From the NCBI GenBank assembly GCA_902384585.1, contig CABMCJ010000004.1:770086-834085 (forward strand): 64,000 nt of DNA, in the 5' to 3' direction. Below are positions 17,121 to 61,916 of the stretch, one piece after another (the first letter of the stretch is position 1; every line of letters begins with the position of its first letter). The translations under genes and the position numbers were made by a program. The notes under the pieces were generated by a model, which saw nothing but the letters and a program-made list of their open reading frames with translations, was not told the DNA's origin and made no database searches. The stretch is from Candidatus Anstonella stagnisolia. GTDB lineage: Archaea > Micrarchaeota > Micrarchaeia > Anstonellales > Anstonellaceae.

Positions 17121-19517
17121 CTATTGGGGCTTCTGCGCGGCTTCTGTTTCTTCCTCTTCCTCCGCGAGCTCTTCCTGCACTGGGGCGGATTTCTTTGCGC
17201 GGGAGGGGGCGGGCTCCTGGACAAGGGCTGGCGCCTTTATGCCAACCGCTGCGCGCTCTGCAATGTCCTTTTTCACAAGAAGCGGGAATTCCTTTTGCCA
17301 TTGGGCGTCTATTTTTGCAAAATCTATTTCACCCTTGCTGTCCGCGAGCTTTATCATGTTTGAAACAAGGGAGAGGCATTTGAGCACGAAATCAATCTCA
17401 AGGAGCATCTTGTCGTTGTATTTGCGGCTTGCGTCAAGTATCTGGGAGTATATTTTTCCCTTGAAGAAGGCTTCGAGGATGAAATGCTCGGGTGAAAAGC
17501 CGCTCTCTGCAGCGCGCCTTTGAAGCGCAGGGGGGACGAATTTTATTTTCAGGGTTTTCTTGAGTTTTGAGAGGTCTATATTGGAAAGCGATGCTGCGGA
17601 TGCTTCTGGGTTGTCAAGGAAATCGCATTTAACGATTGTTCCTTCAAGGGTATCGGAGCGCTGCAGGGTGAACACTTCCACGAACTTGCGCGCCTCCTGG
17701 TCTGTTTCGTATTCCGTGCCAAGCATGCGGTATACCCTGCTCTTTCTTCCAAAGCGCACTTTGCGCAGGAAAGAGTACCTGTCCGTGTTCAGCATGCTTG
17801 CGGCCGGGATGCCGAACACGAGCTCAAAGCGGTCTTGGACGTCCTTTAGGGACTGCGAGTGCAGGTTGTAGAGAAGGAAAATGCCCGGCTGGGTGTTTAT
17901 GAGGTTCATCACCCCCTGCACTGCAACGCGCGAGCGCACCTCGTTTATAATCACGCAGGCGTCCCCCATGCGAAGCGCCGCGTTCACCATTGAAACCAAA
18001 TCCAGCTCGTTGTTGCCCATGCCGCCCATTTCCTCTTTTTCAGAGCTTTGCACGCGCATTGGGCCTATGTGGAAGCCGCGCTTTCGGAATGCGCGTGAGG
18101 GGATTTCCTCTATGTCTTGAATTGGAAGGATGCGCCGCTTTGTGCCTATTGCGGAAATTTTTGCTGCTGTGAAGCAGGTTTTTCCTACGCCTTTTAAGCC
18201 AAGAACTGCTTCGGAGCAGCCCAGGGAAACCATCACGTCATCGTAGCCTGCAAAGAATGGGGTAAATGAGTTGAGGTTGAGGTATTGGGGATATGTGAAT
18301 GGAGTGGGCCGCATAATGCGCAGTGCTGCCTGCAGCTCGCCGAAAGTTGCGGGTGAGCGCTGGAGATGGCAACGCATTGAGAGGCGCGTGAGGACGATGT
18401 CCACAACAGGGTTCTTGTCGTCGAATTTGCGGGAGCGGTCTGTGGAAGCGACGACGTTGTCGAATGCCTTTTGGAGCATTTCCTTGTTGTATCTCCAGAG
18501 CGTGTGGCACAGGCCGAACTTTGCGTGCTCTATGTAAATGGGGGAATTTTCAGAATCTATGTAAATGTCGGTTATGTTTTCGTCGTCAAGTGCCATGTTC
18601 TCAATTGGGGAGCCCAGCCCCACCACCCATGCGGCTGCCTCGCGCCCCATTGCAAGCGCCTGCGGGTGGGTTATTTGGATTTTTGCAAGCGCTGCCTTGT
18701 CTATGAACTGCTGGGTGTATTCGCGCATGCGCGAATCGAAAATAGTTGTGTAGTCCACTATTTCCCGCGACTCTTTCATGCCTTCTGCGATTGCGTCCTT
18801 GAGCATTTTCTGGAGCTCCTGGGGCAGGTTTTCTATTGCAGGGTTTTCCTGAACATACAGGTTTGCCTCTGCCCCCTCCACCTCGTACACTTTCGCCTTT
18901 ATGCCAAAGCCCAGGTCTATTGGGTTGAAAGGGGAATCTATGAGCTTGGAATTTGCAGGGATTGTGAGAAGGAAATTCTGCAGGAACTGAAGGCTCTTTA
19001 GGCCGAGCGTGGAAAGGAATGCGCCGCGCAAATCCCCGCTTTGCTTTGTGAGCAAATAGAGGCGGCTCTTTTTGTAGGTTGCGAGAATCCCGTTCACCCA
19101 TGCGCGGAAAGTATTGTGCCCCTCCACAAAGACCTGTTTTTCGGGGTAGGGTTCCTCGTATTCTTCGAGCGTGCGCGCTGCTATGAGGGGGTTCATGAAA
19201 AGGAAATCGTAAAAGTCGCGCATGAGTTTCTTGCGCTTGGCGTATGCGTCGTCTTCCTGGCGGCCGTAAATTTTCTGGTCTATTATTATTGCCTCTACCT
19301 GGCGCACAATGCCTGCGTATTCGGAGAAGATCTTGGACTTTTCCTCGTCCAAATCAACTACGGTTTCCTCCTCGTAGCGCATTGTTTTCCAGGGGGATTC
19401 GAGAGTGGAAATTGTCTTGAGGTGCGAATTTAAGCAGGCGGAAGTGGTAAGCCCCAAACCGCACGTTGGGCAGTCCATCACGAGGCGGCTTCCTTGGTAA
19501 GATGGGCGGCATGCCAT
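17121..19517 (-). CDS. Large, divergent secretion-type ATPase of the FlaI/GspE/VirB11 superfamily
   Basis: 798 aa. Walker A is GLKGVGKT and it is followed by ILPIQDIEEIP. ACVIINEVRS sits at the Walker-B/Glu position and NLHSQS at the His-box position. The N-terminus has CPTCG...C and the tail is acidic. Confidence 0.6.
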   Translation of the reverse strand: MACRPSYQGSRLVMDCPTCGLGLTTSACLNSHLKTISTLESPWKTMRYEEETVVDLDEEKSKIFSEYAGIVRQVEAIIIDQKIYGRQEDDAYAKRKKLMRDFYDFLFMNPLIAARTLEEYEEPYPEKQVFVEGHNTFRAWVNGILATYKKSRLYLLTKQSGDLRGAFLSTLGLKSLQFLQNFLLTIPANSKLIDSPFNPIDLGFGIKAKVYEVEGAEANLYVQENPAIENLPQELQKMLKDAIAEGMKESREIVDYTTIFDSRMREYTQQFIDKAALAKIQITHPQALAMGREAAAWVVGLGSPIENMALDDENITDIYIDSENSPIYIEHAKFGLCHTLWRYNKEMLQKAFDNVVASTDRSRKFDDKNPVVDIVLTRLSMRCHLQRSPATFGELQAALRIMRPTPFTYPQYLNLNSFTPFFAGYDDVMVSLGCSEAVLGLKGVGKTCFTAAKISAIGTKRRILPIQDIEEIPSRAFRKRGFHIGPMRVQSSEKEEMGGMGNNELDLVSMVNAALRMGDACVIINEVRSRVAVQGVMNLINTQPGIFLLYNLHSQSLKDVQDRFELVFGIPAASMLNTDRYSFLRKVRFGRKSRVYRMLGTEYETDQEARKFVEVFTLQRSDTLEGTIVKCDFLDNPEASAASLSNIDLSKLKKTLKIKFVPPALQRRAAESGFSPEHFILEAFFKGKIYSQILDASRKYNDKMLLEIDFVLKCLSLVSNMIKLADSKGEIDFAKIDAQWQKEFPLLVKKDIAERAAVGIKAPALVQEPAPSRAKKSAPVQEELAEEEEETEAAQKPQ

Positions 19518-24463: not shown

Positions 24464-25636
24464 ATGATAATCGGGATAGTGGGTGCGCCTAACAAGGGCA
24501 AGAGCACATTCTTTTCGGCTGCCACAATGGTGGATGCGCAGATTGCGGACTACCCTTTCACCACGATTGACCCGAACAAGGGAGTTGCGTATGTGAGAAG
24601 CCCGTGCCCGCACGTTGCACTGGGGCTGAAAAAATGCGACGCAAGGAACTCAAAATGCGAAGGGGGGGTGCGGCTCATTCCCATAAACATGGTGGACGTT
24701 GCGGGATTGGTGCCTGATGCGCACCTTGGAAAAGGCATGGGAAACCAGTTTTTGGGGGACCTTGCGCAGGCGGACGTTCTTATACAAGTGGTGGATGCAA
24801 GCGGGCGCACTGATGTGCAGGGGAACCGCGTGGAGGGCGCAGATGTATGCGAGGAAGTGAGGATGCTGCAGCGCGAAATTGAATATTGGATAAAGGCAGT
24901 GTTGGACAAGAACTGGGCAAAAATAAAGGGCAGGGGGATTGCGGATGTTGCGCTTGCGCTTTCCGGAATGAACGTGGGAGCGGCGGCATGCGAGGCTGCT
25001 GCGCGCGAGTGCGGATTGCAAATTGAGAAAATAGAATGGGATGATGGGGAAAAAATGGAGTTCTGCAAAAAAATAAGGGAGGCAAGCAAGCCCATTGTTG
25101 TTGCCGCGAACAAGTGTGATGCGCAGGGGGCTGCTGCAAATGTGGAAAAATTAAGAAATGATTTCCCGGAAATGCTTGTTGTGCCAACGTGCGCCGTTGG
25201 GGAGCTTGCGCTTCGGAAAGCGGCGCTGGGCGGGAAAATAAAATACGTGCCAGGGGCTGCAAACTTCGAGATTTGCGCTGAAATTGAAGAGAAGCAGGCA
25301 AAGGCGCTTGAGGCGATTGGGAAGATAATGCGTGCAAACGGGGAATGCGGGATGGGGGTGCAGGAGCTTATAGGGAAGGCTGTTTTTGAATATTTGAAGC
25401 TGGCGGACGTTTATCCGGTTGAGGACGAGCACAAGTTTTGCGACAACGCGGGCAGGGTGCTGCCGGATGCCTTCCTCATGAAAAAAGGCGCGACTGTTTT
25501 TGACTTGGCGGGAAAAGTGCACACAGATTTGCAGCAGCATTTCATAGGGGCAGTTAATGCAAAAACTAAGATGAGGGTGGGGCGGGACACGCTGCTTTTG
25601 CGCGGGGACGTAATACGCATAATTGCGGGGAAGTAA
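24464..25636 (+). CDS. Obg-family GTPase (YchF/Ygr210-related) with a C-terminal TGS domain
   Basis: Start moved to ATG 24464. The G1 motif is GIVGAPNKGKST, followed by YPFTTIDPN, DVAGLV and NKCD. The C-terminal segment is GDVIRIIAGK. Confidence 0.85.
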   Translation: MIIGIVGAPNKGKSTFFSAATMVDAQIADYPFTTIDPNKGVAYVRSPCPHVALGLKKCDARNSKCEGGVRLIPINMVDVAGLVPDAHLGKGMGNQFLGDLAQADVLIQVVDASGRTDVQGNRVEGADVCEEVRMLQREIEYWIKAVLDKNWAKIKGRGIADVALALSGMNVGAAACEAAARECGLQIEKIEWDDGEKMEFCKKIREASKPIVVAANKCDAQGAAANVEKLRNDFPEMLVVPTCAVGELALRKAALGGKIKYVPGAANFEICAEIEEKQAKALEAIGKIMRANGECGMGVQELIGKAVFEYLKLADVYPVEDEHKFCDNAGRVLPDAFLMKKGATVFDLAGKVHTDLQQHFIGAVNAKTKMRVGRDTLLLRGDVIRIIAGK

Positions 25637-25715
25637 GTTGCATCAGGCGGCGAGCCTTGCAAAGAGGCAAAAGATAAAAAGCGGGACTGAGAATATAGGG
25701 AAACGCGGTGATATC

Positions 25716-27206
25716 ATGGAGAATAATGAAAATGCCAGGAATGCACATGAAGCTGGCGCGAAAAAGAATTATGCGGTTTATGCAGTTGTTGTGATACTTG
25801 CCATTGTTGCGCTTGCTGCAGTTGTTCTTGGGATGCAAAAGCCTGCGGAAACAAAGCAGGCGACCCCGTCTGAATTTTTCTTTGCGTCCATGGACAAGAT
25901 GATGAACGCCACCGAATATTCGCTTGCGTTTAGCGAGAACGTGAGCGGGGTGGAAAACAAATACGCGATCGTGCGGGCCAAGAACGGGATGTTCGCATCG
26001 GCTGAAAACCCCGTAGATATGCGGGAGTTTTACGTGCTGGATGGCGGGAAATATGCGTGCGAGAAATTCGGGAATTACAGCGTGTGCGCGGACATGAGGG
26101 AAAACAGCAGCGCGCTTAATTTTTTCAATGCAAAGCTTGCCCCGAAATTCTTTGGGAAGCAGCAGGTGGAGCAGGACAAGGAATTTGTTGCGGCACTGGA
26201 AAAATTCGGTGCTGCAACTTTTGACGGGAACTTCGTGGAAAAGACAGTGGGAGGCATCAAGTGCAGGCAGGTCACTTATGCGCTGGATTATGGGAAACTC
26301 AGCCTGGACCAGCTAAATCAGCTTGGGATTTCGGCAAGCAGCCCGGTTGTCACGCAATTTAGCGACTACAGGATAAGCCTGTGCATAGATGAGGCAAGCG
26401 GCATTGCGGTGCAAACTGTGCTTTCGTACAAATTCAACAATGAGCAGAGAGTTTATACAAGGGAATATACCGGGCTGGAAGTAGGCGGCGTCGGGGAACT
26501 TAAAGCCCCGCTCAAGCTTGAGAATGTTGCCAAGTTCGAGGACGTTTTTGCGCAGGCAAATGCCGAGCTTGCGGTATATTCTGCATGCAGCGGGCTCGTT
26601 GAGAGCGAGGCTTCAAAATGCTACATAGGGATTGCACTGGACAGGTGGGACAGCAGTTTCTGCTCGAGAATAAGCGCGCCAAACGAGGCGGACAGGTGTT
26701 ACCTCATGGTCGCAGTGCAGGCGTCGCAGCCGCAAACGTGCGAAAGTGCGGGAAAATTGAGGGATGACTGCCTTTTTGAGATTGGGGCGGGAAGCAAAAA
26801 CCCAAGTGTATGCGGGATGATAGGCAATGCGAGCATGGTTGCGCAATGCAATGGGATTGCGGGGAACGGGACTGGGAAAAGCCCTGCGAACCAGACCCAG
26901 GCGCCGGCAAAGAAGGTTGAATGCGCCCAAGACAGCGACTGCGCGCCGACGGGGTGCAGCAACATTGTGTGCGCACCCCTGAACTCCACGGTTGCCACGA
27001 CGTGCGAATACAAATCGGTATACGCATGTTTTGAAAAAGCATTCTGCGGATGCAGGCAGGGCGCGTGCAGCTGGTATAAGGGGGAAGAGTACAATGCATG
27101 CGTAAGCGACTTTGAAAGCTCTGCCATGGAAAGCATAATCAAGGAAAAAATAGCTGAGCTCAACCAGACTGCCGGAAACGTTTCTGCAGGCAACTCAACA
27201 AAATAA
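25716..27206 (+). CDS. Membrane-anchored or secreted Cys-rich protein, function unknown
   Basis: Start moved to ATG 25716. The N-terminal TM anchor is YAVYAVVVILAIVALAAVVLG. The C-terminal third has repeated C-x(9-11)-C units and a dense Cys cluster (ECAQDSDCAPTGCSNIVCAP...CGCRQGACSWY). Confidence 0.55.
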   Translation: MENNENARNAHEAGAKKNYAVYAVVVILAIVALAAVVLGMQKPAETKQATPSEFFFASMDKMMNATEYSLAFSENVSGVENKYAIVRAKNGMFASAENPVDMREFYVLDGGKYACEKFGNYSVCADMRENSSALNFFNAKLAPKFFGKQQVEQDKEFVAALEKFGAATFDGNFVEKTVGGIKCRQVTYALDYGKLSLDQLNQLGISASSPVVTQFSDYRISLCIDEASGIAVQTVLSYKFNNEQRVYTREYTGLEVGGVGELKAPLKLENVAKFEDVFAQANAELAVYSACSGLVESEASKCYIGIALDRWDSSFCSRISAPNEADRCYLMVAVQASQPQTCESAGKLRDDCLFEIGAGSKNPSVCGMIGNASMVAQCNGIAGNGTGKSPANQTQAPAKKVECAQDSDCAPTGCSNIVCAPLNSTVATTCEYKSVYACFEKAFCGCRQGACSWYKGEEYNACVSDFESSAMESIIKEKIAELNQTAGNVSAGNSTK

Positions 27207-42683: not shown

Positions 42684-43550
42684 ATGTTCAAAATAATTTT
42701 TCTCGGGACAGCCGCCTCTACCCCTTCAATAGAGCGCAACCTGCCCTCAATCGCCCTTGTGCGCGAAGGCAGCGCATACCTTTTTGACTGCGGCGAGGGC
42801 ACGCAGCGGCAAATGCTCAAATTCGGCATTTCCTATGCAAAGGTGCGCTCAATTTTCCTTTCGCACCTGCACTTAGACCACGTGTTAGGCATCTTCGGGC
42901 TATCCCAGACAATAAAGCTCAATTTGCAGGGGAAAAAACTCCAGGTGCTCGGCCCCAAGGGAACATCCCAGTTTGCCTCTTCAAACCCCCAGCTCATTGC
43001 AACCGAGCTTGCCCCAGGAAAGCAACTTGACATGGGGGATTTCACAATCACTCCGGTAAAGAACAAACACAACTGCAAGGAGAGCTTTGCGTTCATAATG
43101 CAGGAAAAGCCCAGGATACGCTTCCATGAGGAAAAGGCGAAGTCCCTCGGCTTAAAAGGCCCGCTTTTCACAGAAATACAAGAGAAAGGCAAGCTCAAAA
43201 TAAACAACAAGACAATAAAACTCAAGGATGTCACCTACATCCAAGAAGGCAAAAAAATAGTGTATTCCGGCGACACCGCACCCTGCGCCCCAATGCTCAA
43301 GGCAGCAAAAAACGCCGACATTCTTATCCACGAATCAACTTTCTCAAAAGCCGACAACGCGCTTGCAAAAGAGTGCCTGCACTCAACTGCGGAGGATGCG
43401 GCGCTGCTTGCAAAAAAAGCAGGCGTAAAAATGCTCATCCTCACGCACGTTGGCAACCGCTACCCGCCTTCCCAGCTTGAGGGGGAGGCAAAGGCAATTT
43501 TCCCAAACACTATACTTGCGCGCGATGGGATGTGCGCTGAAATCCGTTAG
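42684..43550 (+). CDS. rnz: Ribonuclease Z (tRNA 3' endonuclease)
   Basis: FLGTAASTPS, FDCGEGTQRQ and SHLHLDHVLG are present; MBL fold; 288 aa. Confidence 0.9.
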   Translation: MFKIIFLGTAASTPSIERNLPSIALVREGSAYLFDCGEGTQRQMLKFGISYAKVRSIFLSHLHLDHVLGIFGLSQTIKLNLQGKKLQVLGPKGTSQFASSNPQLIATELAPGKQLDMGDFTITPVKNKHNCKESFAFIMQEKPRIRFHEEKAKSLGLKGPLFTEIQEKGKLKINNKTIKLKDVTYIQEGKKIVYSGDTAPCAPMLKAAKNADILIHESTFSKADNALAKECLHSTAEDAALLAKKAGVKMLILTHVGNRYPPSQLEGEAKAIFPNTILARDGMCAEIR

Positions 43551-44218
43551 AAGAGCGCAGCCTGCAAGAAATAGAAAATGTGCCTCCACCTTATTTTGCT
43601 CTTCCCATCTTCCCTTTTTCCCATGCAAAATTGGACTTCCGAAATTTGCGCGTCCCTTGGCGCATATTTTAGCATCTCAAAAAGCACCTTGTAGCCTTTA
43701 CCAACAAATTTCCCTTTCTGCGCAACCACTTGCGCAAGCGCCGCCCTTGCCCCAAAAAACCCGCTCATGGGGTCTTTCACAGTTTTCTTCCCACGCAGAA
43801 ACAGCGACGCGTTGGCAATTGCAGTCGCCCCAAGCGAAATAACCTTCCGATGCAATTTCATCGTTTCCCAATCTTCCCTTGCCCCAATCGCAAAATCCGA
43901 GCCGTTCTTGAGCGCTTCAACAAGTTCCCTTGCTTTTGCAACAGGGTGCTGCCCGTCCGCGTCCATCACAACAACAAATTCCCCTTTTGCAAATTTCAGC
44001 GCATGCAGCACGCTTATGCAAAGCCCGTGCTCCTCTTCTTTGCTTCTGTCCAAAAAAAGAACCCGCTTGCTGTGGAGTTTTTCAATTTCTTCCCTTGTCC
44101 CATCAGTTGACCCGTCATCCGCAACAATTGCAAAACATTCCTCATCTTCAAGCAGCGCCCGTACTATTGCTCTTATGCTTCCCGCCTCATTCAAAACCGG
44201 CAAAATTACGCTGTACAT
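43547..44218 (-). CDS. GT2 glycosyltransferase, dolichyl-phosphate mannose/glucose synthase-like
   Basis: VILPVLNEAGSI, VADDGSTDGT and VVMDADGQH are present. It is the last gene of the pilin-like operon. Confidence 0.8.
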   Translation of the reverse strand: MYSVILPVLNEAGSIRAIVRALLEDEECFAIVADDGSTDGTREEIEKLHSKRVLFLDRSKEEEHGLCISVLHALKFAKGEFVVVMDADGQHPVAKARELVEALKNGSDFAIGAREDWETMKLHRKVISLGATAIANASLFLRGKKTVKDPMSGFFGARAALAQVVAQKGKFVGKGYKVLFEMLKYAPRDAQISEVQFCMGKREDGKSKIRWRHIFYFLQAALF

Positions 44219-44224
44219 GGAAAA

Positions 44225-44551
44225 TCAGCAGTGGATGGAGCTGCCCCCATTCATTACTTGCAAAACCTGCGGTGCAATGGTTGCAATCAATATGCCCACA
44301 ATCGCCCCCGTAAGGCACGAAGTAGCCCATACGTTCGCCCTTGCCCTTGTTTCCGCGCCCATCATCTGCCCTGCCGCATATATGACGGACGCAAGAAGCA
44401 CCATAAGCATTGCAGCAACCGGCACAAGCCCGTTCACCGCAGCGCATAATCCGCTCAGTGCCGAAGAGAGTGCGGAAGTCTGCGCATAGGAAATTCCTGC
44501 AAAAAGGACGCCCAATACAAATATGGCATGCAATAGTTGCCTGTTTTTCAT
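44225..44551 (-). CDS. Small secreted two-helix membrane protein with VirB2/TrbC-like (conjugative-pilin-like) layout
   Basis: Start moved to ATG 44551 with an AAGGTG RBS 7 nt upstream. The Sec signal is MKNRQLLHAIFVLGVLFAGISYA|QTS. Helix 1 is LVPVAAMLMVLLASVIYAAG, the charged loop is AETRARANVW, and helix 2 is LTGAIVGILIATIAP. The C-terminus is Gly-rich. Confidence 0.5.
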   Translation of the reverse strand: MKNRQLLHAIFVLGVLFAGISYAQTSALSSALSGLCAAVNGLVPVAAMLMVLLASVIYAAGQMMGAETRARANVWATSCLTGAIVGILIATIAPQVLQVMNGGSSIHC

Positions 44552-44594
44552 GTTCTTGCACCTTGTTTCCTTTCTGGACAAAAGATTATTTAAA

Positions 44595-44996
44595 TCATTG
44601 TCCGCCCTTCCAAACCGCAACGCGCACCCGCGCAAACCCGTTTTTCAGGACAACAATCCGCCCAACGGAATAAACGTCACCCTCTTCCCGCCCGCCCCCA
44701 ATCCCATCTGCGCAGGAAAACGCGTTTTTTCCATCCATTGAAATCCCAACGCATTTTCCTGAAAGCTCCGCAATTCCATGCAAATCATTTTCAAAAGAGC
44801 CAGCCGTCCCATGCTCTCCTTTAACCCAATTTGCAAACCCATCAAGCGCCCCCTTTTTCGCAAGCACGCTTGCGGCATCCTGCGCAAGCCGCTGCCCATA
44901 AACTGCATCCCCTGCGCACTGCGCCTCCGGTTGTGCCAGCATCGCAATCACTATAAGGAGCGCAAGCAGGGAAAACAGAGCCTCAAACGTCATCAT
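44595..44996 (-). CDS. Pilin-like protein (short N-terminal hydrophobic helix, then a globular domain)
   Basis: An AGGTGA RBS lies 8 nt upstream. The N-terminus is MMTFEALFSLLALLIVIAMLA. Confidence 0.5.
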   Translation of the reverse strand: MMTFEALFSLLALLIVIAMLAQPEAQCAGDAVYGQRLAQDAASVLAKKGALDGFANWVKGEHGTAGSFENDLHGIAELSGKCVGISMDGKNAFSCADGIGGGREEGDVYSVGRIVVLKNGFARVRVAVWKGGQ

Positions 44997-45074
44997 CCCA
45001 GCTCACCTTGAAAAAGCGCCCCGCGCCCCAAGCTTAACTCGTTTGCCGCGCTTTGCAGCCCGCTCACTGTACGC

Positions 45075-45494
45075 TCAAACACTCCCATAGCCGCACACCC
45101 GAACCGCGCAAATTTCCGCATCGCAAAGCGCAATCCTTTTCACGCAAAAATAGTTTCCAGCCCCGCTGCTTTCCGCACCCCTTTTAATTTCAATTTCCCG
45201 CTCATCTGCATAAGAAACAAAAACATCAAACCCTCTGCCCTGCCCGCCAATCCTCCCCAAATCCACCTCATGCTGCAAATAATACCCTCCCCCATCCGCA
45301 TTCTTCTTTGATGCCGTGCCACCCTCTTTCACAAACCAATCCGCATAAGAGTGCAGCAAATTCTTTTGCGCGCAGGCGGCTGAAATTTCCATCTTATCCC
45401 TCCCTGCTTTTTCAAGCGCCCCAAATCCGCTTGCAGCAACAAGCATGAGCACAAGGAACGCCCCAGCCAAATCAACAAACATTTGTGCTTTCAT
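45075..45494 (-). CDS. Pilin-like protein with a class-III-type signal
   Basis: The N-terminus is MKA|QMFVDLAGAFLVLMLVAASG, with Q at +1 and an acidic residue at +5. The ATG directly follows the stop of the upstream frame. Confidence 0.5.
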   Translation of the reverse strand: MKAQMFVDLAGAFLVLMLVAASGFGALEKAGRDKMEISAACAQKNLLHSYADWFVKEGGTASKKNADGGGYYLQHEVDLGRIGGQGRGFDVFVSYADEREIEIKRGAESSGAGNYFCVKRIALCDAEICAVRVCGYGSV

Positions 45495-45624
45495 TTATTG
45501 CCCGCCCGCGCCAAAAACATCCGCGCCCGCCATTTTTTTCCATACCTGCGCCCGCCGCCAATGCAAAACTACGACCCCCTCAGCCTGCTTTTTGCAAGCT
45601 GCCAAATCCTCCGCGCCCAGCCCA

Positions 45625-46044
45625 TCATGCGCCCTCCAGCCCGCTTTTTTCAATCTGCCGCACGTTTGCATCCGAATAAGCCCGCACAACCCCGCGCACG
45701 CTTGCATTGTTTTTCACGGATGCGATTACTTCCCCGTTTGCCCTCCATTCTTCCCATTGCAATTGCACGCGCGCCCCCCTTCCGCTGCCTGCATATTCCT
45801 GTGCAAGCAGCGCCTGCCCAGAGAGCATTTCCTTTTCGCCCCAATACTGCGCCCGTTCCCTGTCTCCCTGCCCGATTTTCCCAAGCGTTCCAAGGAAAAT
45901 CCCAACGCACACAACAAGTACAAGCACTGCAAAAAGGATTTCTAGCGAAGCCTGCCCAAGTTTCCTGCCGCCAAGCACGCGGTTCCCACTGCCCATCCGC
46001 ACGAAATTCCCATCCACTCCAATCCTCCCCATCCTCTCCCTCAA
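45625..46044 (-). CDS. Pilin-like protein with a class-III signal peptide (likely start at 45996)
   Basis: ...GGRKLG|QASLEILFAVLVLVVCVGIF has Gly at -1, Gln at +1 and Glu at +5. It overlaps the upstream gene by 4 nt. Confidence 0.55.
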   Translation of the reverse strand: MRERMGRIGVDGNFVRMGSGNRVLGGRKLGQASLEILFAVLVLVVCVGIFLGTLGKIGQGDRERAQYWGEKEMLSGQALLAQEYAGSGRGARVQLQWEEWRANGEVIASVKNNASVRGVVRAYSDANVRQIEKSGLEGA

Positions 46045-46631
46045 TATTTGATTTCAAGCCAGGGCGGGAAATACGATTCAAAATAAACCTCCCCATTTTT
46101 TTCCGCTGCCCCAAACCCAATTGCGGAAATTTCACCAGTGCCCAAAAACACATCCCCTTTCTGCAGCCGCACAACCCTTCTTGCAAAATCAACATCCACA
46201 AACCCGCCGCACCCTTCCTTTGCGCTTTTGCATTGCACGCACATTGCAGTTGCAGGATTCCCGCGCAGCGCAATCCCTTCAAGCTCATCCCCGCTTGTTT
46301 TGCCGCACCACAGGGCAATGTCCCAATCCCTATCTCCCTCAAGGTATAGCGCAAGCGTGGAAATCCTCTCCCCAATTTTCTCCCTCATGTATTCCGAAAG
46401 CCCTTTTTTGCAGTTCCCTTCCGCTGCGCATTTTGCAAATTCCGCTTCAGCTTCCGCCGCCCCCTGCCTCACGCCCTCCCCAATCGCCCGCTTCACATCC
46501 ATCTCAAAATAGTATTTTTTTTCAAGCTTTTGCACCTGCGCCGCGCTATCCTCCGTTTTCGCAGCGCCATAAATAGAAAAAACAGCAAGCACGAATGCAG
46601 CAGCCAAAACAAAAGTTATAAAGCCCCTCAC
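46041..46631 (-). CDS. Pilin-like protein, first gene of the operon
   Basis: The N-terminus is MRG|FITFVLAAAFVLAVFSIYG, followed by a 170-aa Cys-containing globular part. Confidence 0.5.
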   Translation of the reverse strand: MRGFITFVLAAAFVLAVFSIYGAAKTEDSAAQVQKLEKKYYFEMDVKRAIGEGVRQGAAEAEAEFAKCAAEGNCKKGLSEYMREKIGERISTLALYLEGDRDWDIALWCGKTSGDELEGIALRGNPATAMCVQCKSAKEGCGGFVDVDFARRVVRLQKGDVFLGTGEISAIGFGAAEKNGEVYFESYFPPWLEIKY

Positions 46632-46646
46632 GGGATATACTTACCT

Positions 46647-48143
46647 ATGAAGATAAAAAATATTCCCTCCACAGCGCAGTGGCTCATCATAATCCTCCTG
46701 CTCTACTTCCTGCTTCGCCTTCCTTTCATAACTACGCTGCCGCTTCTCAAGGACGAAAACCTCTATTCCCTCATGGCTGATGAAATGCTCTCAAGCCCCG
46801 GGCTGCTTCCAACAATGTTCGGGCAGCAGCTTGCATGGCGCCCCGCCCTCCCCTTTTACATCCTCGCCCCAGCCTCCTCGCTGCTGCTCAACCTCCCTCT
46901 CCCTGTAGAATTCGCATACCGCTTCCCCTCAGTGCTCTTTGGCGCAGCCTGCGTGCTCCTGCTTTTCCAATTCGTGCGCGAGCTTTACGGAAACGAAGAG
47001 CTTGCCCTAATTTCTGCGGCAATCTTCGCATTCAACCCCCTTGTGATTTACGTGAACAACACTGTGCTTGTGGATTCCCTGCTGCTTTTCTTCATGCTTC
47101 TCTCGCTCCTTTGTTACGTGCGCGGCATTAAAAAAGAAAAATATTTCCTTGCAGCAGCCGCATTCGCGTTCCTCGCCTTCATGGTAAAAACAGTGGTTGC
47201 GCTCATAATCCCCTTCCTTGCAATCGCGCTGCTCTTTTTCCACTCCAGGAAAAGCCTTTCAAACAAATATTTCCTGCTTTCCCTTCTCGCAATCCCCCTC
47301 GCACTGGGCGTTTATTGCCTTATGTTCCCTGACAAGCAAATGCTGTTTGACGAGCTTTCAAAAAACGTGACCCAGAAGCTCCCTTCAGTCGCCGCGGATT
47401 CCCAGCTTCTCACGCTGCTAAACCGCTTCTGGGGCTCCTTGTGGATTTTCCTTGCGTTCTGCATCGTGTGGCTGGGCTTTTATGCAAGCGGCATTTTCCT
47501 CTACTGGCGAAAGTACCCCTTCCTTGTTTTCTGGTGCCTCTTCATTGCGTTTGCAATTTCCGGAGGCGCCGGAATGCCCTGGTACTACCTGCCCATTATG
47601 CCTGCACTTAGCGTTTTTGCAGCCCTGCCCATTCTCGCAGGCCAGCGCGCAGACAAATTCACCTTCGTCGCAATCTCCTCCCTTCTTCTTGTTTCCGCAG
47701 GCCTTTCAGCGTATTTCTACGTGCAAAACACGTTCGGCTTTTCCACAATGCACGAAAAAAACGCAGGCATATACCTGCAGGGAAAAAACAACACGCTCCT
47801 GATAGGCAGCTACCCCGCGGGCATCCTGTTTTACAAAACGCACTTTGAAAATCCGCGTACAACTTTCTGCTGGGTGAACATGTTCGCGCCCCAAAACGCA
47901 AGCGAGGAAATGGTCCGCAGCTACGTTTACAACTATTCCGGTTTCTCCCCGCCAACAAGCTACTCTCGCCTCACGGATTTCTTCTGGGAACAGCGCGATT
48001 TCAAGCTGCCTTGCAATGCGCCCGTAAAATTCGATTACATCGCATCCGTTGGCATCAACCGCAGCATCCTAAGGTCGCTTCCCGATTACAAATTTTCCTC
48101 TGCCTTCGGCTCCAACATCACGGTTTACGAAAGGATAAAGTAG
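46647..48143 (+). CDS. GT-C fold glycosyltransferase (ArnT/PMT, GT39/83-like), polytopic
   Basis: Start moved to ATG 46647. It has about 11 TM helices and an early loop with DENLYSL, as in the dolichyl/undecaprenyl-phosphate-sugar transferases. It is divergent from the pilin-like operon. Confidence 0.7.
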   Translation: MKIKNIPSTAQWLIIILLLYFLLRLPFITTLPLLKDENLYSLMADEMLSSPGLLPTMFGQQLAWRPALPFYILAPASSLLLNLPLPVEFAYRFPSVLFGAACVLLLFQFVRELYGNEELALISAAIFAFNPLVIYVNNTVLVDSLLLFFMLLSLLCYVRGIKKEKYFLAAAAFAFLAFMVKTVVALIIPFLAIALLFFHSRKSLSNKYFLLSLLAIPLALGVYCLMFPDKQMLFDELSKNVTQKLPSVAADSQLLTLLNRFWGSLWIFLAFCIVWLGFYASGIFLYWRKYPFLVFWCLFIAFAISGGAGMPWYYLPIMPALSVFAALPILAGQRADKFTFVAISSLLLVSAGLSAYFYVQNTFGFSTMHEKNAGIYLQGKNNTLLIGSYPAGILFYKTHFENPRTTFCWVNMFAPQNASEEMVRSYVYNYSGFSPPTSYSRLTDFFWEQRDFKLPCNAPVKFDYIASVGINRSILRSLPDYKFSSAFGSNITVYERIK

Positions 48144-48146
48144 CGC

Positions 48147-48536
48147 CTATTTCTTTGCAACCTCGATTCTTGGAGGTATCATGGGCGGGGAAAGGTTGAC
48201 TGCCCTCACAACGAGCGTGCCGTTTGCGCCGCACGCATAGTTCACGTTGTTAAGCACCGCCTCTGCAAACAGGTCCGGCAGCTTCTTTTCTTTTTTCCAC
48301 CTGTCCTCAATTTCCTTCAGGAGCTTGTGGTCTTCCTTTGCCGTAAGCTCGCCCTGTATCGTGAGCTCCCCAACGCCTTCCTGGTAGTCCGCGGTATAAG
48401 TGTATTTTATCGTGGCTTCCCCGCCGCTTACGCTTACCTCGTCAAGCGCGATGTTTATCCCAAGCCCCTTTATCTCGCCATCTTTCATCCTTTTTGCTTC
48501 CACGCGGCTTATTTTCATGTTCGTTATCATATTCAC
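48147..48536 (-). CDS. Hypothetical conserved-looking protein
   Basis: 129-aa ORF predicted to be beta-rich. No motif recognised. Confidence 0.5.
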   Translation of the reverse strand: MNMITNMKISRVEAKRMKDGEIKGLGINIALDEVSVSGGEATIKYTYTADYQEGVGELTIQGELTAKEDHKLLKEIEDRWKKEKKLPDLFAEAVLNNVNYACGANGTLVVRAVNLSPPMIPPRIEVAKK

Positions 48537-51674: not shown

Positions 51675-52496
51675 GTGGTTAGCGTAAAGTTCCGTGCGCA
51701 AAAGGCGCAGGCAGCAACAGAGTACCTAGTCCTTGTAAGTGTAGTTCTCATGATTGCGCTCGTTTGCATTGCAATACTTGTCTGGCCAACCGGCGCAACA
51801 AAAGACACAAAACAGTCGCAGGCTGACATAAAGCTCGGGCTTGGGAAAATCGCATACCCTGAACTTGCCGACGGGCTTGCTGGGTACTGGAAATTTGACG
51901 CATCTCCGGGTGTAGGCGTAAACAGCGTAGTGCCCGGAGTTGATGCAAGCCTTATAAACGGCACAACATTCAACGCAAGCGGCAGGAGCAATGGCGCGCT
52001 GCAGTTCGATGGCATTGATGATTATGCTGACAGCAACAGAGATTATAGCTGGGGCGTAAATGGCAGTTTCACAATTTCCTACTGGGTTTATCCATATAAC
52101 CCGGCTGGATCGCGCGGCATATTCGGCAAGCCCGCGCCAAACTGGGAATGGGGAACGTACATAAATGGAAACTCACCGGTCTTTTACTATTACAATACCA
52201 CAGGCTCCAATTACATAATAAATCTTCAGCCCACTACGCTTGGCACAAACGCCTGGACGCACATCGCAATAACTTATGGGGGCAACCAGGCGAATTTTTA
52301 CAAAGACGGCGTTCTTCTCCAAACCCAATCAAACATAGGCGGGACGTTCAAGGACAACTCTGCCTCAGTTATTTTTGGGAGGGACTATAACGTAGGCGGC
52401 TATTTCAGCGGCTTGCTTGATGACGTCCACTTCTACAACCGCGCCCTCTCAGCGGACGAAATAGAACTCCTTTACGAGCATCCCGGATATCCATAA
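51675..52496 (+). CDS. Type IV pilin-like protein carrying a LamG (concanavalin-A-like lectin) domain
   Basis: GTG start. The class III signal is MVSVKFRAQKA|QAATEYLVLVSVVLMIALVCIAIL, with Q at +1 and E at +5. The LamG_3 hallmarks are GALQFDG.DDY, W.HIAITYGG and LLDDVHFYNRALSADEIELLY. Confidence 0.75.
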   Translation: MVSVKFRAQKAQAATEYLVLVSVVLMIALVCIAILVWPTGATKDTKQSQADIKLGLGKIAYPELADGLAGYWKFDASPGVGVNSVVPGVDASLINGTTFNASGRSNGALQFDGIDDYADSNRDYSWGVNGSFTISYWVYPYNPAGSRGIFGKPAPNWEWGTYINGNSPVFYYYNTTGSNYIINLQPTTLGTNAWTHIAITYGGNQANFYKDGVLLQTQSNIGGTFKDNSASVIFGRDYNVGGYFSGLLDDVHFYNRALSADEIELLYEHPGYP

Positions 52497-61064: not shown

Positions 61065-61916
61065 CTACATTCTCACTATGAGCATGAGCACGTCCCCAAA
61101 GAAAAGCGTGATGAGCAGCCCAAGGAGAATATGGGGCAAAAACGGCGGCATTTTCGTATACACGCAGTATTTTTTTAGCGGCAGTTTTGCAAGCCTTGCA
61201 AGTTCCTTTGAATCCGCAACCCTTCTCAAGTTGTATTTTTTCACAACTGACTCGTCCATGTACTCAAGCGCAATTACGTCTTCTTCCTCTATTTTTGAGA
61301 ACGGGACCTCCTCCACCATCATCCTTGCAATCCGATTCTTGAACAAGAGGAAAAACAGGGAAACAAAAACAACAAACCCGACAAGCACAAAATACGCTGG
61401 CCCAAACACGCCGTTCTTCCCGGCAACATACACGAAAACCGCATACGCAGCCGCAACCAAAACCGCCCCAAGCGCAGTCTTTGCGTCCACTTTCATCTTT
61501 TCCCTTCTCGCATCCCTTACTGCCCTCGCGCCGTAAAACGCAAGCATGTACAGCATAAAAGTTATCCCCGACGCCGCAATAACGGAGAACACATACGGAT
61601 ACGGCGCAGGCGCAACGTTTGCAAACACCGTGGGCTGCACAGGAAGCAAAAGCGCTATTGCGCTCAGGATGTACACGTCCGCGCCTCCAAGCTGCCCTGC
61701 CCTATAAAGCAAATACCCAGCAACAAAAATCGCAATTGCAACAGCGAAAGCAAGCAGGCTTCCCTGCCCCCAAAACACCAAATCGAAGAGCACCCCGAGC
61801 GCAAGCATCGCATACAAAAGGATATTCGGAATATTCCGGTTGTTCCTCAAATCATAATATGCGCCCGCAGCGCATCCCGCAATTGCTATCAAAACCCGTG
61901 CCAGTTCAAATTCCAT
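61065..61916 (-). CDS. A24-family prepilin/preflagellin peptidase (PibD/FlaK/EppA-like) with an extra C-terminal soluble region
   Basis: The first catalytic Asp context is GAYYDLRNNRNIPN and the second is GQLGGADVYIL. About 6 TM helices are followed by an ~80-aa hydrophilic segment and a final TM helix. Confidence 0.75.
   Translation of the reverse strand: MEFELARVLIAIAGCAAGAYYDLRNNRNIPNILLYAMLALGVLFDLVFWGQGSLLAFAVAIAIFVAGYLLYRAGQLGGADVYILSAIALLLPVQPTVFANVAPAPYPYVFSVIAASGITFMLYMLAFYGARAVRDARREKMKVDAKTALGAVLVAAAYAVFVYVAGKNGVFGPAYFVLVGFVVFVSLFFLLFKNRIARMMVEEVPFSKIEEEDVIALEYMDESVVKKYNLRRVADSKELARLAKLPLKKYCVYTKMPPFLPHILLGLLITLFFGDVLMLIVRM

Follow-up and report, generated by a model that had tools for sequence, protein, structure and literature searches.

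Four pilin-like proteins encoded as a conserved cassette apart from an assembly motor in Candidatus Anstonella stagnisolia and other Micrarchaeota

The window analysed here is a stretch of 64,000 nucleotides (nt) of the Candidatus Anstonella stagnisolia genome, C4:770086-834085 (C4 being contig CABMCJ010000004.1) of a 1.33-Mb assembly in six contigs; positions without a contig prefix are those of the window. Five co-oriented open reading frames (ORFs) on its minus strand, g1 to g5, span 46631-44225. They encode, in order of reading, a 196-aa pilin-like protein, the largest of the first four (g1, 46041..46631), a 135-aa protein with a class III signal (g2, 45625..46032; 123 aa from the alternative start at 45996), a 139-aa pilin-like protein (g3, 45075..45494), a 133-aa leaderless pilin-like protein (g4, 44595..44996) and a 108-aa VirB2/TrbC-like protein (g5, 44225..44551). 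An initial annotation had taken these for five tightly coupled genes with overlaps or short gaps; the common orientation stands, whereas the intergenic gaps (8, 130, 78 and 43 nt, from g1/g2 to g4/g5) leave no overlaps. The first four genes constitute a fixed single-copy set that is encoded apart from the assembly motor in many Micrarchaeota. A literature search found no published description of this four-gene cassette.

The first three products begin in the manner of prepilins. In g1 (MRG/FITFVL, the slash marking the putative cleavage site) and g3 (MKA/QMFVD) a short basic leader precedes a hydrophobic helix of ~20 residues, and g2 reads ...GGRKLG/QASLEILFAVLVLVV. The charged leader and helix that had been claimed for four products are thus found in g1, g2 and g3; g4 starts at the helix. 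The class III pattern proposed for two of them is borne out by the orthologues. The g2 motif is [KR][GA] then QxSxE, with Q+1 and E+5 invariant in 15/15 sequences at a mean column identity of 27%, and that of g3 is [KR][GA] then FxSxD, with D+5, two C-terminal cysteines and one arginine (here C117/R120/C134) invariant in 17/17. Orthologues of g1 share M[KR][GA] then [FY]xxF, lack the acidic +5 residue in all 23 cases, a lack known from some minor pilins, and conserve four cysteines (WCG, CxxC...C). The Class_IIIsignal family (PF04021) matches 6/15 g2 orthologues, below or near threshold (best E 1.5e-4), and among PDB sequences the g2 profile matches nothing but four bacterial type IV pilins, none of them significantly (E 0.5-1.4). 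A AATATTTTTTAT box at -33..-22 of the GTG start of g1, which can also be read in the same-genus locus L017, suggests that the g1 mRNA may be leaderless.

The AlphaFold2 model of g3, built from 17 sequences (pLDDT 82.6), consists of a single helix (residues 2-58) followed by a six-strand sheet, and would thus have the general lollipop shape of a pilin. That of g1 (pLDDT 82, pTM 0.74) comprises a transmembrane helix (2-21), two further helices (26-71 and 78-97) and then a beta-sheet. The helix and sheet anticipated for a pilin head therefore appear in the g3 model; a match to solved structures does not, Foldseek against the PDB returning nothing at E <= 0.1 for either protein (best E 0.44 for g1 and 0.18 for g3). 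Nothing was found with the g3 profile among PDB sequences, or with Pfam on the 17 g3 orthologues. Neither model matches a solved structure, so a pilin fold in g1 and g3 is suggested only by predicted architecture.

The fourth product, whose N-terminus is MMTFEALFSLLALLIVIAML, begins MMTFEAL directly with the hydrophobic helix and has no leader; an in-frame TGA stop lies 9 nt upstream of its start codon. Counting the initiator methionine as 1, a glutamate occupies position 5. Orthologues mostly begin M(Q/K/M)T[LFI]E, with E or D at the place equivalent to +5, and a few lineages retain a full leader (KRG/LMSFE, LRG/IVFSLE). From this motif, the upstream stop and the leader-bearing orthologues, g4 appears to be a pilin-type protein that lost its leader, so that the initiator methionine would take +1 and the glutamate +5. 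Loss of the leader is recurrent in the cassette, because the g2 orthologues of loci L054 (5463-5623 region, (M)TIEFL) and L058 (6612-6900, MTVEFL) are also without one.

Conservation of the cassette was followed in 20 fetched g1 loci from different genera, with L017 and L018 compared besides. Genes g3 and g4 lie downstream of g1 in 20/20 fetched loci, g2 in 19/20 (it is missing only in L039), and the order g1-(g2)-g3-g4 recurs in L017 and L018; the synteny that the initial annotation proposed to check is thus kept. At L047 (1378-5101) and L051 (7404-10794) an insert of 3.5-4 kb, holding an RFC-like AAA gene and small ORFs, parts g3 from g4. The same-genus L017 has a gene for a PMT-type glycosyltransferase followed by g1-g2-g3-g4-g5, and in L018 (32% identical) g1-g4 follow ThiI and a tRNA deacylase, PMT being absent. 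Neighbours otherwise vary and are of housekeeping type (Rpo7, RNase Z, an M42 peptidase, an aminotransferase, GMP synthase, a Cdc48-type AAA protein). That no assembly ATPase, platform or peptidase gene adjoins the cassette had been noted for the window, and this detachment is conserved across the class. A word-based search retrieved just four g1 relatives, and an exhaustive profile search of 1.84 billion proteins retrieved 83 representative clusters, all of ~200 aa. In a phylum sample of 401 genomes, a 23-sequence g1 profile matches 170, from 78/155 genera, almost always as a single copy; among the 177 genomes of families f12 and f13 the profile search found g1 in none.

Relatives of the cassette exist elsewhere in the same genome. 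Four loci there combine an ATPase with a platform gene, none of them inside the window. Two of these, locus A (C4:19.7-27 kb) and locus C (C4:629-639 kb), each open with four or five pilin-like genes and carry an ATPase and TadC; their pilin-like products have the same N-terminal types, QxSxE and FxSxD, plus one larger acid-less member. A set with these same N-terminal types and no motor, set E, lies at C4:664.5-668.7 kb, and a motor-less group of QxSxE-type genes, set F, at C4:878-880 kb. The profiles of g2, g3 and g4 match exactly the pilin-like genes of these sets (E 1e-9 to 0.05), one of which resembles DUF7287. The g2 profile also matches other class III proteins of the genome, the g3 profile matches the D+5 proteins of sets E, C and A (E 1.4e-5, 1e-3 and 0.05, respectively), and the g4 profile the third pilin-like gene of locus A (E 0.004); both the g3 and the g4 alignments extend past the hydrophobic helix. 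On these profile matches, g1-g4 resemble a diverged paralogue of those pilin sets which normally stand beside a motor.

For processing, the genome offers a single enzyme. The A24 prepilin peptidase of PibD/FlaK type at 61065..61916 on the minus strand (PF01478, E 5.7e-10), which had been pointed out as a candidate 15 kb from the cassette, is the sole one in the assembly and is presumed to process g1-g3. The ATPase candidate that had been placed 27 kb away did not hold up. The T2SSE ATPase family (PF00437) has no match above noise in the window, and the ORF probably meant (798 aa, 17121-19517) is without a Pfam match. Weak T2SSE-like matches were also rejected; inspected by eye, their sequences look like those of a PIN/KH ATPase, of FtsY, of a Lon-like protein, of Orc1 and of an AAA protein.

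Cassette-bearing genomes with just two assembly ATPases always have the same two kinds, here called D-type and B-type. The D-type locus of this genome (C2:136852-144522, on contig C2) encodes an ATPase, two TadC proteins and one major pilin, KG/QAAMEYLMTYGWAL; it holds a single pilin in this genome and in five relatives. The B-type ATPase/platform pair (C4:439383-442517) lies 375 kb from the cassette, and B-type loci have no pilin genes in this genome or in five relatives. UppS and DUF192 genes precede the pair (C4:438282-442517) here and in 3/5 fetched relatives (L072, L076 and L079); the wider region (C4:433091-442517) also has an AglB-like gene (WWDYGHW motif) and an FAD oxidoreductase gene before it, as in L072, and a polyprenol-reductase-like gene is part of the neighbourhood. 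To judge from these predicted functions, the pilus-type B-type motor sits within a dolichol/N-glycosylation neighbourhood.

The distribution of the cassette was set against these motors in the 401 genomes, a B-type orthologue being scored as present at a best E <= 1e-65, a threshold set in this analysis. Among the 189 genomes with a B-type orthologue g1 is present in 160 and absent from 29; among the 212 without one it is present in 10 and absent from 202. The association, uncorrected for phylogeny, has a Fisher p of 3e-67 over all genomes and of 7e-11 outside families f12 and f13, which lack both. The D-type ATPase was found, at ~50% identity or more, in 16/16 sampled g1-less genomes (14 of f12/f13 and 2 of f14). 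Because of this co-occurrence and the presence of the D-type in g1-less genomes, the evidence favours the B-type motor as partner: the cassette tracks the pilin-less B-type pair, not the universal D-type pilus locus.

The fifth gene is of another kind. Its product has a Sec-type signal, MKNRQLLHAIFVLGVLFAGISYA/Q (ISYA/QTS), and a pair of hydrophobic helices with a short charged/basic loop (GAETRARANVW) between them. It matches the T4SS_pilin family, PF18895, at E 3e-3 (18-21.7 bits, under the cut-off of 26.6) and TrwL of NCBIfam weakly (0.03). It has at least 797 homologues; some close ones carry PF18895 or PF04956, and the close ones come from taxa labelled Candidatus Micrarchaeota, Micrarchaeia or Anstonellaceae. 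Within the same genome phmmer finds six paralogous ORFs, and PF18895 matches eight places at E <= 0.01; g5 is one of these, and two others (C4:510.7-511.1 kb) were missed by phmmer. The family cut-off is exceeded by the paralogues at C4:510939 (32.1 bits) and C4:859844 (29.6 bits), and the 429-aa ORF at C4:852833-854122 joins an N-terminal VirB2-like module to a long C-terminal extension. By these features g5 belongs to a multicopy family of VirB2/TrbC-like proteins and is no type IV pilin; the minor-pilin or pseudopilin resemblance that had been extended to all five products accordingly holds for g1-g4 and fails for g5.

The only VirB3/4-like ATPase of the genome (C4:513613-516753, 1046 aa) has PrgI, TraG P-loop, DUF87 and AAA_10 domains, with a P-loop_TraG match of 1.3e-20; the VirB4 family PF03135 is absent from the genome, the ATPase being detected via AAA_10 and the TraG P-loop instead. 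Two PF18895 genes lie 2.5 kb upstream of it, and g5 is ~300 kb away, i.e. not encoded with it. The locus as a whole (C4:509763-521050), which resembles a type IV secretion system, encodes an N6/N4 DNA methylase, the two PF18895 proteins, a 506-aa secreted protein, a 316-aa protein with multiple transmembrane helices and the VirB3(PrgI)-VirB4-like ATPase. It could represent an integrated element or serve in DNA transfer; an Orc1/Cdc6 gene lies at C4:522364-523569, and the DNA methylase is on the ATPase's other side. In three other lineages the closest relatives of g5 stand between NFACT-R and a Na/H exchanger, near MBL and PheRS genes, without g1-g4 or PMT, and the same MBL and PheRS genes flank the locus in the window. 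Because g5 relatives elsewhere share this housekeeping neighbourhood without the cassette, the juxtaposition of g5 and g1-g4 is specific to this genus.

Two glycosyltransferase genes flank the five, as the initial annotation had described. The GT2 gene (43547..44218, minus strand; PF00535, E 7.9e-24) starts 6 nt past the g5 stop. Its NCBIfam matches are AglJ (1.8e-12) and dolichyl-phosphate hexose transferase (4e-8), so that it is of the dolichyl-phosphate hexose synthase/AglJ-like kind; it is probably co-transcribed with g5. The divergent GT-C gene, of PMT_2/PMT type and ArnT- or Agl23-like (46647..48143, plus strand; PF13231, E 4e-16; PF02366, E 2.2e-13), has its start codon 15 nt from that of g1. 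PMT_2 genes stand beside g5-like genes in the window, at L017, L040, L042, L047 and L051, and at C4:264.6-266.8 kb, where the second PMT_2 gene of this genome adjoins two g5 paralogues. PMT or GT2 neighbours occur at only ~6/22 cassette loci, always together with g5-like genes. Sequon density in the g1-g4 families is 0.3-0.8 per 100 aa vs 0.51 for the genome; for the pilin-like proteins of loci A and C it is 1.1-5.3. The four products of the window have one sequon altogether and 6-7% Ser+Thr, and the sole Ser/Thr-rich stretch is the mature N-terminus of g5 (QTSALSSALSG).

Together, these results make it more likely than not that g1-g4 are a fixed cassette of type IV pilin-like proteins, with the B-type pair as candidate motor, and that g5 is a separate VirB2/TrbC-type protein. 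In such a system g1, g2 and g3 would enter the membrane and be cleaved by the single A24 peptidase behind the conserved Gly/Ala, g4 would be made without a leader, its initiator methionine at +1 and its glutamate at +5, and the four N-terminal helices would pack into a short heteromeric filament or a priming/tip complex, with the large acid-less g1 on top as for GspK/PilX-type subunits in bacteria. The B-type pair would be the most likely motor, a link drawn solely from co-occurrence. As for g5, it would have come to lie beside the cassette in this genus; it probably shares a transcript with the cassette and GT2, and it belongs more plausibly with the VirB3/VirB4-like ATPase locus (C4:510-517 kb) and the GT-C enzymes that often adjoin its paralogues. 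A putative role of g1-g4 in cell-cell attachment is plausible.

Several observations weigh against a motor-driven, pilus-like cassette. Pfam and NCBIfam gave no matches for g1-g4 of the window, and no solved pilin was matched by the g1 or g3 models. No fetched locus has an ATPase or platform gene within 6 kb of the cassette. The leaderless g4, and g2 in two lineages, imply that not every member has to be cleaved. The resemblance to the paralogous pilin sets is weak (E 1e-5 to 0.05) and in part reflects the hydrophobic helix. Finally, the co-occurrence with the B-type ATPase rests on few independent losses or gains, and g1 occurs in 10 genomes that show no clear B-type orthologue.

Other partners and other functions were weighed on the same evidence. 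There is a small chance that g1-g4 and the B-type motor form a Micrarchaeia-specific pseudopilus, an independently evolved counterpart of the bacterial four-minor-pilin or type II secretion system (T2SS) tip complex, in which one subunit (two in some lineages) would be translated leaderless from +1, bypassing the prepilin peptidase; because the motor lies among AglB-like, polyprenol-reductase-like, UppS and DUF192 genes, such a device could act in envelope biogenesis or in contact with a host, and not as an ordinary adhesive pilus. That g1-g4 are instead minor pilins priming the universal Micrarchaeia D-type pilus is unlikely. The single pilin of the D-type locus, in this genome and five relatives, would need minor pilins from elsewhere, and archaeal major and minor pilins are often encoded apart (PMC4858521), but D-type orthologues persist in all 16 sampled g1-less genomes and g1 was found in none of the 177 f12/f13 genomes, so the D pilus does not need the cassette.

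It is quite unlikely, too, that the four are N-terminally anchored envelope proteins (a FlaF/FlaG-like stator or anchor, or a membrane-bound T2SS-like pseudopilus) rather than filament subunits. The leaderless g4 and the leaderless g2 of L054 and L058, the lack of a structural match to solved pilins, the housekeeping-type single-copy conservation among core genes (Rpo7, RNase Z, PheRS) and the position of the B-type motor among dolichol and N-glycosylation genes would all suit such proteins. Yet the invariant G/A(-1), Q(+1) and E/D(+5) are the hallmark of type IV filament subunits that are processed by a peptidase and packed by their helices, and the predicted lollipop shape of g3 and the paralogues in ordinary pilus loci point the same way. 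The view of the initial annotation, that the five genes and the two glycosyltransferases are one unit making a dedicated glycosylated filament, is very improbable. It draws on the shared orientation, the short gaps, the closeness of the GT2 and PMT genes and the same arrangement in the same-genus L017, but that arrangement is genus-specific, g5's closest relatives in other genera are without g1-g4, and PMT accompanies g5-like genes, not the cassette. A dedicated glycosylated g1-g4 filament is thus not supported, because PMT is absent at most cassette loci and the sequon density of the predicted proteins is at background; the glycosylation genes beside the B-type motor leave a looser glycosylation link open.

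The named comparison for a type IV pilus-like g1-g4 is the Epd pilus, or 'system 1', of Methanococcus maripaludis with EpdA, EpdB and EpdC as its minor pilins (PMC3875500, PMC4858521, PMC13705601). There, too, several different small class III proteins with Q+1 and an acidic +5 occur together, those of Epd being jointly needed for one pilus; minor pilins are essential in Methanococcus (PMC3875500). The Epd system has its pilin genes partly apart from the motor, and the pilin genes of archaea are frequently located outside their loci (PMC4858521). Unlike the Epd genes, the cassette is always apart from the ATPase and platform, has one leaderless member and has a candidate motor with a single fused platform gene, not two; g1-g4 have no sequence-family match to Epd proteins (Pfam, NCBIfam). 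According to PMC13705601, DPANN archaea (Nanobdellati) keep ATPase and platform adjacent with the pilins scattered elsewhere, system-1 (Epd-like) pilins being common, and the cassette is like them in this respect; the four-gene cassette, its leaderless member and the co-occurrence with a pilin-less motor are not described in the searched text of that paper.

The bacterial GspH-I-J-K and FimU-PilV-W-X sets offer a second likeness, by analogy, in that four pilin-like proteins are encoded together and the largest, g1 like GspK/PilX, is without the acidic +5. The bacterial tip complexes are thought to prime assembly. Unlike the cassette, bacterial minor-pilin sets lie in or near machinery operons, and PDB fold and sequence searches gave no homology or fold match to GspHIJK or PilV/W/X.

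For g5 the nearest parallel is with the multicopy VirB2-like arrays of Patescibacteria, which come with VirB4 and no relaxase (bioRxiv 10.1101/2025.01.22.634366). Both consist of small two-helix proteins with a Sec signal and PF18895/PF04956 affinity, and both are found in reduced symbiont genomes whose VirB4 includes a PrgI/VirB3-like part and which lack an obvious relaxase. Here, unlike in the Patescibacteria arrays, the host is archaeal, and most copies, among them g5, are dispersed among housekeeping genes, often beside GT-C genes, not virB4.

The Micrarchaeota are tiny, probably host-dependent archaea. The cassette presents a defined, conserved four-protein target, with a candidate motor, for cultivation-based studies such as those on Micrarchaeota co-cultures, and a leaderless pilin-like subunit would be an unusual route into a type IV filament. 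The known picture of scattered type IV filament genes in DPANN archaea is unchanged, and the annotation of the fifth gene is corrected: the genome has, in addition, a VirB4-type system whose VirB2-like genes are dispersed.

The window has further features. The g2-g3 spacer (45495..45624, minus strand, 130 nt) occurs nowhere else in the genome; it is rich in G and has a predicted fold of -42.9 kcal/mol, a value without a shuffled control. It is missing from L017, where the g3 start abuts the g2 stop. A frameshift or overlapping gene in the spacer was considered and rejected, since L017 keeps the g2 C-terminus and stop and the 130 nt are merely additional sequence. Housekeeping genes of archaea (TFE, aTrm56, RFC, PheRS, RNase Z and RtcA) neighbour the locus. 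Large ORFs of 798 and 527 aa with no Pfam match at E <= 1e-4 lie at 17121-19517 (minus strand) and 25623-27206 (plus strand), and a 129-aa protein with no family match, encoded at 48147-48536 (minus strand), is conserved beside PMT or MBL genes in the relatives L017 and L042. A 273-aa protein encoded on the plus strand at 51675-52496, 5 kb from the cassette, has a class III signal of textbook form, RAQKA/QAATEYLVLVSVV, fused to a Laminin_G_3/ConA-like lectin domain (PF13385, E 1.8e-26) and is a candidate pilus-borne adhesin.

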